DNA from: Escherichia coli O127:H6 str. E2348/69
GTDB taxonomy: Bacteria; Pseudomonadota; Gammaproteobacteria; Enterobacterales; Enterobacteriaceae
Strand: one strand, 5' to 3'
NCBI RefSeq assembly: GCF_000026545.1
Contig: NC_011601.1
DNA: 64,000 nucleotides
The position numbers were made by a program. The number at the start of each line of letters is the position of its first letter. Position 1 is the stretch's first letter. Below, piece after piece: positions 1 through 3,000 of this stretch.

Positions 1-3000
1 AGGAGAAGATTGTCGCAATACGCAGCGGTTTATAGGTAGCCGATTTATTAGCGGCTTCTTCTTGTAACCGTTTAAACGTCGCATAATAGGCTTTCGCGGC
101 ATCCACGCTGCTCACTGCCAACATAGCATTAAAACCTTTTGAGCCAGGGAAGGTACGGTGGGTTTTCTGGCGGAAATTATTCAGAATATATTGCGTGATT
201 TCCTGAATACGCATGGGATGAAGAAACGCCTGCTGATTTTCAGCCGCACTTAGTTTTTTCTCGTCAGTTTCTGTCTCTAAAGACTTAAACTGTGGTCGCA
301 CATCGTTGTAGTCCACCTTGAATTTGAGCACTTTTTCGTCACGAATCGCATCGGTAATTACATACGAATGCAATTCACGACCAAATACGCTGGCGGTTGT
401 TTCTGAGCCTAAGGCGTTTTCCGGGAAAATAGGGGTGCCGGTAAAACCAAACTGATAATAGCGTTTGAATTTCTTCTTCAGGTTTTTCTGCGCTTCTCCA
501 AACTGGCTGCGGTGGCATTCATCAAATATAAACACCACTTGCTGATTATATACAGGCAGGTCGCTTTCTGCTTTCATCAGGTTATTGAGTTTCTGAATAG
601 TAGTGACGATAATTTTGTTATCGTCCTTATCCAGATTTCGTTTAAGGCCTGCGGTATTTTCCGAGCCGTTGACGCTGTCTGGCGAAAAACGCTGATATTC
701 CTTCATGGTCTGGTAATCGAGGTCTTTCCTGTCGACCACAAAGAAGACTTTATCAATAAAGTCCAGCTCTGTTGCCAGACGCGCGGCTTTAAAGCTGGTG
801 AGGGTTTTACCAGAACCGGTAGTGTGCCAGATATACCCACCGCTTTCCGGTTTTGACCAGTTCTTCGCTGTAAAGGAACTCTTAATTTTCCACAGAATGC
901 GCTCGGTGGCGGCAATCTGGTACGGTCGCATCACCAGTAGCGTCTGACTACTGTCAAAAACGCTGTAGTTCACCAGAACATTCAGCAGAGTATGTTTCTG
1001 GAAAAAGGTAGCGGTAAAGTCTTTGAGGTCTTTAATCAGCGTGTTGTCTGATTTCGCCCAGTTCATGGTGAAGTCAAAACTGTTTTTATCGCGCTTTGTC
1101 GTGTTGGCAAAATAACGGGTATCGGTGCCGTTAGAAATGACAAACAGTTGCAGATACTTAAACAGGGAATTTTCGCTGTTAAAACTCTCTTTACTGTAAC
1201 GATGTATCTGGTTGAAAGCCTCACGAATCGCCACCCCGCGTTTTTTTAGTTCGATTTGCACCAGCGGTAAACCATTAACCAGGATCGTGACGTCATAACG
1301 GTTAGCATGAGAACCCGTCTGTTCAAACTGCTGGATAATCTGCACCTTATTGCGCATGAGATTCTTTTTATCTATCAAATAGATGTTCTCAAGTCGCCCG
1401 TCGTCAAAAATAAAGTCGCAGATATAGTCGATATGGATTTTACGGGTTTTATCCAGAATACCATCGCTGGGGTTGTCCAGATACTGCTCCGTGAAGCGCC
1501 GCCACTCGCTGTCATTAAACATCACACCATTGAGGCTCTGAAGCTGTTCCCGAACATTAGACAGCATTGCCGACTGTGATTTTACGGAAATAAATTCATA
1601 ACCCTGATTCCGCAGGTCCTGAATCAGTTCACGTTCCAGGTCCGATTCGCTCTGGTAGCTGTCGCTTGTTTGCTCAGCTTTGATGTACTTATCAAGGACG
1701 ATAAAGTTATTGGATTCAGCAATGGTGTGTGTTTGATGAGTCATAGCGCATCCTTTGTGCCGCCTGGCAAGAGCCGGAAGGGCGTTAAGAGTGACTTCCG
1801 GCGCGTAAAAAATAGTCTATATACTGACCGGGTGTTAAGGTGGCCCGATCGGTAGCAATGGTCAATTAATTACTGACAGTTTCAGGTTTCGGGAAACTGA
1901 ACAGTAAATCACGGTAGTATTCGTATTGTTTCTGGCGCAACTCGATTTCACGCGGGAGACCTTCAGTGATGGAGTTGGTCAGGGTGTCGAATTTATCGAG
2001 TATTTCGACAATGCGAGCTTGTTCTTCTGAAGGTGGTACAGGTATTGGGAATTTTAAAAACATTGGTCGACGAAGTGAGGTAACCGATGAACTTACTGAT
2101 GCTTTTTGAATATAGGTAAAAAAATATGCTGTTATATAGTGATATACAAATCGCGGATTCATAAATGCATTTGGGACAATACGATATGCTCTCTGATGCA
2201 AAGCATATTTACCTTTAGCGTAATGAAATACCTTCCCCACCCCGGCACCATCTCCAGCTGTAATGATTGCTGTTTCATCAAAATCAAATACATTTAACTT
2301 TAATGGCTCACGTCCACGTGCATAAAAAATATATTTGCCATGTTCTATAGCATCTTGCGTATCATGGTTACCTGTTCCTATAACAGCCACTTCCCCCAAA
2401 GTCTTCCACTCAACCTCACCCTCTTTAAAACTCAACAACTGGTCACGATAGTAGTTGTACTGTTTTTTACGCATGTTAAGCTCAGCGGTAAGCTCAGCGG
2501 TAAGCTCAGCGGTAAGTGCAGTAAATTTATCCAGAATCCGAACGATTTCAGACTGGATGGCAAGGGATTTCTCCGGATTATCCGGGCAGGGGATGGGGAT
2601 TAAGAGCTTTTTTAGGTCGCCCATTGGTAGACTAATTACCGGGTTGCCGACAATTTTTTTGCTATAGTCTTTAACTATTTTACTTGATTGTAATAAATAC
2701 GATAAAAATCTAGGCGCAATTTTTTCCTTAATTGGTTTGATAGTGTAAACGCCTTCTTTGATATTCCAATTTATAGGATTTTCTTCAATTACCGCGATGC
2801 GTCCAACCGTGCCGGTTCCGGAGAACAATATATCTCCAGCTTCTAAATTAGAACGACCATTTATTATTTTTAATGCTCTATCATTTACTCTGTCTGTTTT
2901 ATCAAGAAAGACAACTTTGCCATTCTGGATCTCACGAACAGTTACGTAATATCCTTGGGCATCTAATGTATTTAAGCTAAAATTTTGGCGTGGGTTCAAT

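Follow-up and report, generated by a model that had tools for sequence, protein, structure and literature searches.

The window analysed here is a 64,000-nt stretch of the genome of enteropathogenic Escherichia coli O127:H6 str. E2348/69 (NC_011601.1), and its first 6 kb are 100% identical to three independent assemblies of this strain. This part carries a type I restriction-modification (R-M) system encoded on the minus strand. The specificity gene of the system, hsdS, contains three perfect tandem copies of a 12-bp unit between its two target recognition domains (TRDs), each unit encoding the tetrapeptide TAEL. The features of the locus, with lengths in amino acids (aa) and the open reading frames (ORFs) that define them, are as follows.

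1..1744, minus strand: 5' part of hsdR, cut off by the window start; the genome record gives it 1038 aa (translation, TIGR00348).
1745..1865, minus strand: hsdS-hsdR intergenic region, ~121 nt (122 nt as published).
1866..3092, minus strand: hsdS, type IC specificity subunit, 408 aa plus stop (ORF; two PF01420 domains; EcoR124 match; RefSeq WP_001293053.1).
1869..2036, minus strand: C-terminal conserved region of HsdS, aa 353-408, with the partner helix ILDKF-DTLTNSITEGLPREIEL-RQKQY.
2037..2417, minus strand: TRD2, C-terminal, aa 226-352; putative reader of the RTGA half-site, from the published methylome.
2418..2612, minus strand: central conserved region, aa 161-225, the helix with the TAEL repeats, which pairs with the C-terminal helix.
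2478..2513, minus strand: TAEL repeat tract, three perfect 12-bp units, with the periodicity extending over 2477-2516 (direct read, Tandem Repeats Finder, translation).
2613..3035, minus strand: TRD1, N-terminal, aa 20-160; putative reader of the CYYA half-site, from the published methylome.
3089..4645, minus strand: hsdM, 518 aa, with a 4-nt overlap between its stop and the hsdS start (TIGR00497).

HsdS contains two Methylase_S domains (Pfam PF01420, residues 17-206 and 226-384). The hsdM product matches NCBIfam TIGR00497 with 643.6 bits (E-value 2.2e-193) and the hsdR fragment matches NCBIfam TIGR00348 with 574 bits, both far above the cutoff. A phmmer search against solved structures revealed that HsdS most closely resembles the HsdS of EcoR124 (PDB 7bst, chain A), with an E-value of 5e-79. 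The alignment covers HsdS residues 1-25, 163-250 and 297-408, where the N-terminal, central and C-terminal conserved regions are near-identical, whereas no alignment was obtained in this search between the TRDs of E2348/69 HsdS and those of EcoR124I. Compared to residues 141-224 of EcoR124I HsdS, the central region is near-identical as well, and the sole gap corresponds to one extra TAEL. TRD1 is 53-76% identical to the TRDs of other HsdS representatives. At the nucleotide level, many plasmid hsdS genes match TRD2 with 95-99% identity, and most hits of a protein search restricted to TRD2 were half-size S proteins.

The gene organisation also follows the type IC pattern, in which the overlapping hsdM and hsdS are followed by hsdR on the same strand, ~121 nt downstream of hsdS. 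The hsdS-hsdR gap contains no prrC-like gene and no same-strand ORF of at least 30 aa. A separate hsdR promoter, as in EcoR124I, was presumed to lie in this gap by Hobson et al., who described the same locus and passed over the repeat without comment (PMC2518929). The identities to EcoR124I published for this locus are 98% for HsdM and 97% for HsdR, and deletion of hsdR in E2348/69 increased transformation up to 10^4-fold with modification kept (PMC2518929). Complementation between subunits is what defines families of this kind. Altogether, with conserved regions that match 7bst, TRDs that do not, and a repeat unit and flank identical to those of EcoR124II (see below), the locus is, read at the sequence level, a type IC (EcoR124-family) R-M system with new TRDs.

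Window positions 2478-2489, 2490-2501 and 2502-2513 each read AAGCTCAGCGGT. An earlier reading of the window from its sequence alone (hereafter the sequence-only reading) had reported a triplicated 12-bp unit at 2478-2513, and these coordinates proved exact. Tandem Repeats Finder gave a period of 12, 3.3 copies and 100% matches, with no insertions or deletions (indels), over a tract at 2477-2516. On the minus, coding strand the tract reads ACCGCTGAGCTT three times over and is translated as three TAELs at HsdS residues 194-205. It sits in the central conserved helix between the two TRDs, that is, in the inter-TRD spacer to which the sequence-only reading had assigned it. Within the 64-kb window it is the only perfect 3x12-bp repeat; no such repeat occurred in any of 50 shuffled windows, and the analytic expectation is ~2e-10 per window. 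The three independent E2348/69 assemblies all have the identical three-copy sequence (100% identity), and hsdS is 1227 nt, encoding 408 aa, in the Sanger-based description of the locus from 2008 (PMC2518929). As all of these agree on three copies, the repeat is not an assembly artefact. A plus-strand ORF of 87 aa (2340..2603) runs antisense to hsdS and spans the repeat; it was treated as a spurious chance ORF.

The role of such repeats is known from the EcoR124 family. EcoR124I has two TAEL copies and the target GAAN6RTCG, whereas EcoR124II has three copies and the target GAAN7RTCG (PMC3874165), in agreement with the sequence-only reading, which had cited two versus three copies as the basis of N6 versus N7 in this pair. 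Each TAEL corresponds to about one helical turn, by which the TRDs shift ~0.34 nm apart and rotate ~36 degrees (PMC3874165, PMC12707154). EcoDXXI and EcoprrI, with three copies each, combine an N7 spacer with a methyl-adenine interval of 8, compared to an interval of 7 in EcoR124I, and the specificity change between EcoR124I and EcoR124II arises by unequal crossing-over (PMC3874165, PMC12707154). The similarity extends to the DNA, since the published primers for converting EcoR124II to EcoR124I read accgctgagctt-aacatgcg, in which both the unit and its 3' flank are the same as in the window.

We propose that the E2348/69 repeats work in the same way. They would be part of the first of the two long conserved helices by which the DNA-reading TRDs are kept apart, and each extra TAEL would add about one helical turn, set the TRDs 1 bp further apart and lengthen the non-specific spacer by one. 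The adenines that a three-copy enzyme methylates are thereby expected to lie 8 nt apart, on either side of an N7 spacer. The copy number would change through mis-pairing of the perfect repeats, either by replication slippage or by unequal crossing-over; it is this molecular route, together with the rate of the repeat indel, that we infer. Overall, it is highly probable that the 3x12-bp tract serves as the TAEL ruler in a type IC enzyme that is chromosomal and functional, and that its copy number toggles on evolutionary time. It is a known mechanism in a well-documented additional system, here in the three-copy (N7) state, and current understanding is not overturned.

Comparison with other strains revealed a natural two-copy allele of the same gene. 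The hsdS of strain Z1323HEC0423 is 1215 nt long and translates to the E2348/69 HsdS with two TAELs; the two genes have 0 mismatches over 1215 nt and differ by one 12-bp indel. The sister strain Z1323HEC0067 also has a match of two-copy length, at 100% identity. The suggestion of the sequence-only reading that the repeat can vary heritably thus holds between strains, given that this two-copy allele has no other nucleotide difference in hsdS. Excepting the indel, the mismatch-free tract extends over window positions 1523-4081 (2.56 kb; locus coordinates 4523-7069 in Z1323HEC0423) and spans the hsdR 5' end, the whole of hsdS and two thirds of hsdM. Its flanks show patchy divergence of 1-2%, with 22 mismatches in 801-1000 and 29 in 5601-5800. 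This mosaic divergence suggests that lineages have recently exchanged the hsdS segment by recombination. Because the repeat indel is the only mutation in the 2.56-kb tract, the indel rate would crudely be at least about the summed point-mutation rate of ~2.5 kb.

Two further pairs of alleles also differ in the repeat alone. The protein P0001, with the repeat TAEI-TAEI-TAEL, is identical outside the repeat to P0003 (TAEI-TAEL), and this pair is, as its sequences read, a second unit gain or loss at the same tract, on a TAEI-marked background. Likewise, P0018 (two copies, 155 contigs) and P0035 (one copy), which carry a different TRD pair, are identical to each other outside the repeat. For the E2348/69 TRDs, the two-copy protein P0002 is encoded on 143 contigs in a large protein collection, with near-identical variants on fewer contigs. 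The exact E2348/69 HsdS is absent from a collection of 15 billion proteins, and the three-copy form is rare, being found in E2348/69, on the IncY plasmid pLR-13_1 with one single-nucleotide polymorphism, and as the variant P0001. As pLR-13_1 has the same three-copy hsdS apart from this one position, the allele moves between chromosome and plasmid backgrounds. The pLR-13_1 locus (AP027478.1, 3442-9465), from a human faecal E. coli, is more diverged in hsdM (42 mismatches) and hsdR (29 mismatches) than in hsdS.

The copy number was further surveyed within and beyond E. coli. Of the 5,426 complete E. coli genomes, 1,263 contain this type IC hsdS central region. In 60 systematically sampled records, 57 of them assessable, there were 31 two-copy and 26 three-copy alleles, where the copy number was inferred from the length of the matched stretch and not from read-out sequence; translation confirmed three copies in one plasmid allele that has other TRDs. 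A BLAST identity-band census with synthetic two-, three-, four- and five-copy queries was dropped, because queries with surplus copies give overlapping pieces that are joined as 100% identity and 100% coverage. Five-copy alleles were found in 13 pig-associated E. coli chromosomes, and in the one examined, that of NT1F10 (locus 2494-3729), the neighbouring hsdM is truncated by IS2.

A cross-phylum scan with the repeat coding sequence, covering one genome per species and requiring at least two copies by design, yielded at least 120 loci. Among the matches listed, the loci span Bacillota, Bacteroidota, Pseudomonadota, Spirochaetota, Cyanobacteria, Planctomycetota, Mollicutes, Saccharibacteria and one Thermoplasmata archaeon; 74 of them have two copies, 44 have three, one has four and one has five. 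Full-length ORFs, with at least 340 aa, were present at 86% of these two-copy loci and 91% of the three-copy loci. In a five-copy metagenome-assembled genome of Defluviitaleaceae, the hsdS ORF is truncated to 269 aa. With this case and that of NT1F10, which are independent, more than four copies may persist only in inactivated systems. Other HsdS lineages (representatives P0121-P0270) contain tandem tetrads with a different first residue, such as SAEL-SAEL, EAEL-EAEL and QAEL-QAEL, and the x-A-E-L repeat architecture is therefore broader than TAEL itself.

Further analysis of the units revealed that they resemble each other within a gene much more than between genes. Among the matches listed, 83% of the within-gene unit pairs are nucleotide-identical, compared to 10.6% between genes (mean of 2.0 differences), and at least 33 distinct unit sequences occur across the cross-phylum loci. 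On a per-gene measure, identical coding of the TAELs was observed in 81%, whereas the codon usage of each gene itself predicts a mean of 1.9% and a maximum of 8.7%. Identity at synonymous sites is not explicable by protein-level selection but is explicable by repeated gain and loss of units. By these comparisons, the units show concerted evolution through recurrent gain and loss. Recurrent indels on evolutionary time would account for sister alleles that are one unit apart, for two and three copies both being common, and for units that are homogenised. Two and three copies being common, four and five rare, five in defective contexts and the units homogenised, these patterns together suggest that spacer-length toggling is a general and recurrent route of type I specificity change.

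These data also bear on the alternative that the three TAELs are a static structural repeat, which sets a fixed length of the coiled-coil helix at a frozen copy number and has no role in diversification. The lengths of the helices are in its favour. When three copies are present, the ILDKF and R-x-KQY anchors are separated by 17 aa in the central helix and likewise in its C-terminal partner, which agrees with the remark in a review that three TAEL copies are the apparent optimum (PMC3874165). The E2348/69 repeat sequence is also stable across laboratories. However, sister alleles that differ in copy number alone were found in three independent cases, two- and three-copy forms are both common in intact genes, and synonymous sites are homogenised within genes far above the codon-usage expectation, which is not expected of a frozen repeat. 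We therefore regard a static repeat as very improbable.

The published methylome of E2348/69 by Tvedte et al. contains two bipartite 6-methyladenine (m6A) motifs, neither of which was assigned to an enzyme (PMC8495745). CYYAN7RTGA, with 579 sites, is methylated almost universally and lacks a REBASE match, whereas YTCAN6GTNG has 880 sites and is common to four other strains in REBASE, three of E. coli and one of Shigella; no N6 or N8 partner of CYYAN7RTGA was reported (PMC8495745). We consider it very likely that CYYAN7RTGA is the target of the three-copy type IC enzyme. Its methyl interval (N7 plus R, giving 8) matches that of every characterised three-TAEL type IC enzyme, compared to 7 for YTCAN6GTNG. 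Its second half-site has the RTNN form of type IC targets (RTCG, RTTC and RTGC), and RTGA itself is known from a Photorhabdus system (strain TT01, GGAN6RTGA) with the gene order hsdM-hsdS-x-hsdR. Moreover, the type IC hsdS central region was found at one place only in the E2348/69 genome, and none of the other complete E. coli genomes has the E2348/69 three-copy HsdS allele. This rarity fits a motif with no REBASE match and is a misfit with YTCAN6GTNG, a motif common to three other E. coli strains.

The reverse assignment, in which the three-copy enzyme reads YTCAN6GTNG and CYYAN7RTGA stems from a different system, would mean that the N6/N7 rule is not simply transferable to these TRDs. The assignment of motif to enzyme was never made experimentally (PMC8495745), GTNG starts with a purine and T like the RTNN half-sites, and a second system must exist somewhere in the E2348/69 genome. 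Against these points, the characterised three-TAEL type IC enzymes all have an interval of 8 and not 7 (PMC3874165, PMC12707154), YTCAN6GTNG is common to the Shigella strain and the three other E. coli strains, yet the three-copy HsdS is found in no other complete E. coli genome, and the RTGA half-site has its precedent in the Photorhabdus hsdM-hsdS-x-hsdR system. The reverse assignment is thus unlikely.

As to a second type I system, the yjiA-symE immigration-control region (window 41670-44511) has only a 210-nt C-terminal remnant of hsdR at 42223-42432, and no hsd genes were found in the first 50 kb of pMAR2. Given that this region holds a remnant only, the working type I system is the type IC one ~40 kb away, and the system responsible for YTCAN6GTNG lies elsewhere. 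A 3'-5' exonuclease gene at 42661-44511 adjoins the hsdR remnant. With CYYAN7RTGA as the target of the type IC enzyme, the loss of one unit in E2348/69 would produce the common two-copy allele, with the predicted target CYYAN6RTGA. A literature search returned no paper with CYYAN6RTGA or with another occurrence of either E2348/69 motif.

The tract could also switch much faster than on evolutionary time, as a high-frequency contingency locus with slippage at ~1e-4 or more per generation and standing N6, N7 and N8 sub-populations that differ in their methylomes. Perfect repeats and DNA-level homogenisation across phyla do imply recurrent indels, and the indel is the sole change in the 2.56-kb tract common to two strains, which puts its rate above the summed point-mutation rate of the tract. 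In addition, the change between EcoR124I and EcoR124II by unequal crossing-over is on record (PMC3874165), and repeat-mediated changes of hsdS spacing have been proposed as phase variation (Atack et al. 2020). However, the tract has three units only, whereas the tracts of classical contingency loci are longer and built of shorter units. Three copies are present in each of the three assemblies and in the Sanger genome of E2348/69, and methylation of the N7 motif is nearly universal, with neither an N6 nor an N8 partner reported (PMC8495745). For this TRD pair, the two-copy form dominates (P0002, on 143 contigs, and its variants) and the three-copy form is rare, a pattern that looks like occasional mutation and not like rapid equilibrium. 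We consider such a contingency locus improbable.

Several points weigh against our own reading of the tract as a ruler that toggles on evolutionary time. The four independent consensus sequences of E2348/69 named above are all of the three-copy form, and no N6 version of CYYAN7RTGA has been reported (PMC8495745), from which it follows that switching is not frequent enough to show at the consensus level. Within E2348/69 the evidence is at this consensus level only, and rare variants may be present. The E. coli census took copy number from matched length, and the cross-phylum scan admitted only loci with at least two copies. Finally, we infer the link between motif and enzyme, and E2348/69 has the second bipartite motif YTCAN6GTNG, for which the responsible system was not located. 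The data contain no sign of the sub-populations of differing methylation that the sequence-only reading had envisaged. The evolutionary toggle fits the data, whereas rapid phase variation in E2348/69 is not supported.

More speculatively, and with clearly less confidence than we place in the evolutionary toggle, the tract might be a specificity toggle maintained by selection in bacteria and at least one archaeon. The identity of the units would then reflect cycling between two and three copies (sometimes one, four or five), and any large population with a type IC-like system, that of E2348/69 included, would contain rare cells with an N-1 or N+1 spacer. If so, these cells would be a bet-hedge against phages and plasmids that carry the majority methylation pattern, and the switchers would survive their own unmethylated sites thanks to the assembly-controlled restriction alleviation of type IC enzymes.

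Comparison with known systems places the E2348/69 enzyme closest to the EcoR124 pair. The N-terminal, central and C-terminal conserved regions of HsdS are essentially identical to those of EcoR124I and EcoR124II, and the unit ACCGCTGAGCTT and its 3' flank are identical to those of EcoR124II, which also has three copies. A natural pair of two-copy and three-copy alleles is likewise known as R124 and R124/3. Despite this similarity, both TRDs are unrelated to those of EcoR124I and EcoR124II, and the putative target is CYYAN7RTGA compared to GAAN7RTCG. EcoR124 is located on an IncFIV plasmid, whereas the E2348/69 system is chromosomal, on an island that directly adjoins tRNA-Leu in Z1323HEC0423. 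Moreover, the EcoR124 alleles arose in one laboratory lineage, whereas the alleles of the E2348/69 type are found in different strains.

EcoDXXI (TCAN7RTTC) and EcoprrI (CCAN7RTGC) are also type IC enzymes with three TAELs (PMC3874165, PMC12707154), and the putative target CYYAN7RTGA resembles that of EcoprrI in form. In the EcoprrI system, however, the anticodon-nuclease gene prrC lies between hsdS (prrB) and hsdR (prrD), whereas the E2348/69 locus has only ~121 nt at this position and lacks prrC. One public record, that of plasmid pLR-13_1, names the same hsdS "EcoprrI subunit S", and that locus also lacks prrC. Because there is no prrC between hsdS and hsdR, this label is an annotation by similarity and not by identity. 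None of the 120 closest HsdS proteins is named EcoprrI. Identity with EcoprrI was rejected, as the prrC gene is missing and the motif differs from CCAN7RTGC.

The tract has features in common with two further kinds of variable R-M loci. Phasevarions (Atack et al. 2020) similarly have a tandem repeat within an hsd gene, whose change in length alters the behaviour of the methyltransferase, and TAEL is cited there as a precedent for spacing changes. They differ in having long runs of short units, which switch expression ON and OFF at high frequency by frameshift, whereas the E2348/69 tract has an in-frame 12-bp unit in a family of two to three copies and would change specificity, not expression. 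The hsdS shufflons, such as pneumococcal SpnD39III and the Mycoplasma hsd loci, also obtain alternative type I specificities from one locus. In these loci, several hsdS or TRD cassettes recombine with each other by a site-specific or homologous mechanism, and the recombinase is often encoded within the locus. By contrast, the E2348/69 locus contains just one hsdS without TRD cassettes, the annotated integrase is found past the distal end of hsdR and has no cassette role, and the change is limited to the length of the spacer.

For E2348/69, these assignments tie together the hsdR-dependent barrier to genetic manipulation, the motif CYYAN7RTGA and the sequence feature that sets its N7 spacer. 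The strains with the two-copy hsdS are a natural control. They should methylate CYYAN6RTGA and, if this is true, would be the first natural replicate of the EcoR124I/EcoR124II pair on unrelated TRDs. A survey of type I repeats left a systematic treatment of in-frame 12-bp repeats open (Atack et al. 2020). New here are a natural pair of two-copy and three-copy alleles with new TRDs, the probable assignment of an orphan motif to an enzyme, and evidence for recurrent turnover of the repeat across prokaryotes.

In the surroundings of the locus, a site-specific integrase and accessory genes lie beyond hsdR in E2348/69, whereas in Z1323HEC0423 tRNA-Leu directly adjoins hsdR. On the other side, a defence cluster beside the type IC system occupies window positions 4952-10500. 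It comprises a DUF4942 protein gene at 4952-5785, a McrB-family and McrC-family pair at 6147-8201 and ~8198-9508, a restriction endonuclease that binds phosphorothioated DNA at ~9571-10443, and an HNH endonuclease pseudogene. Type 1 fimbriae are encoded by an operon at ~15589-24340, together with the recombinases fimB and fimE. The invertible element fimS is expected between fimE and fimA (~17265-17746), a classical phase-variation element that is unrelated to the TAEL repeat.

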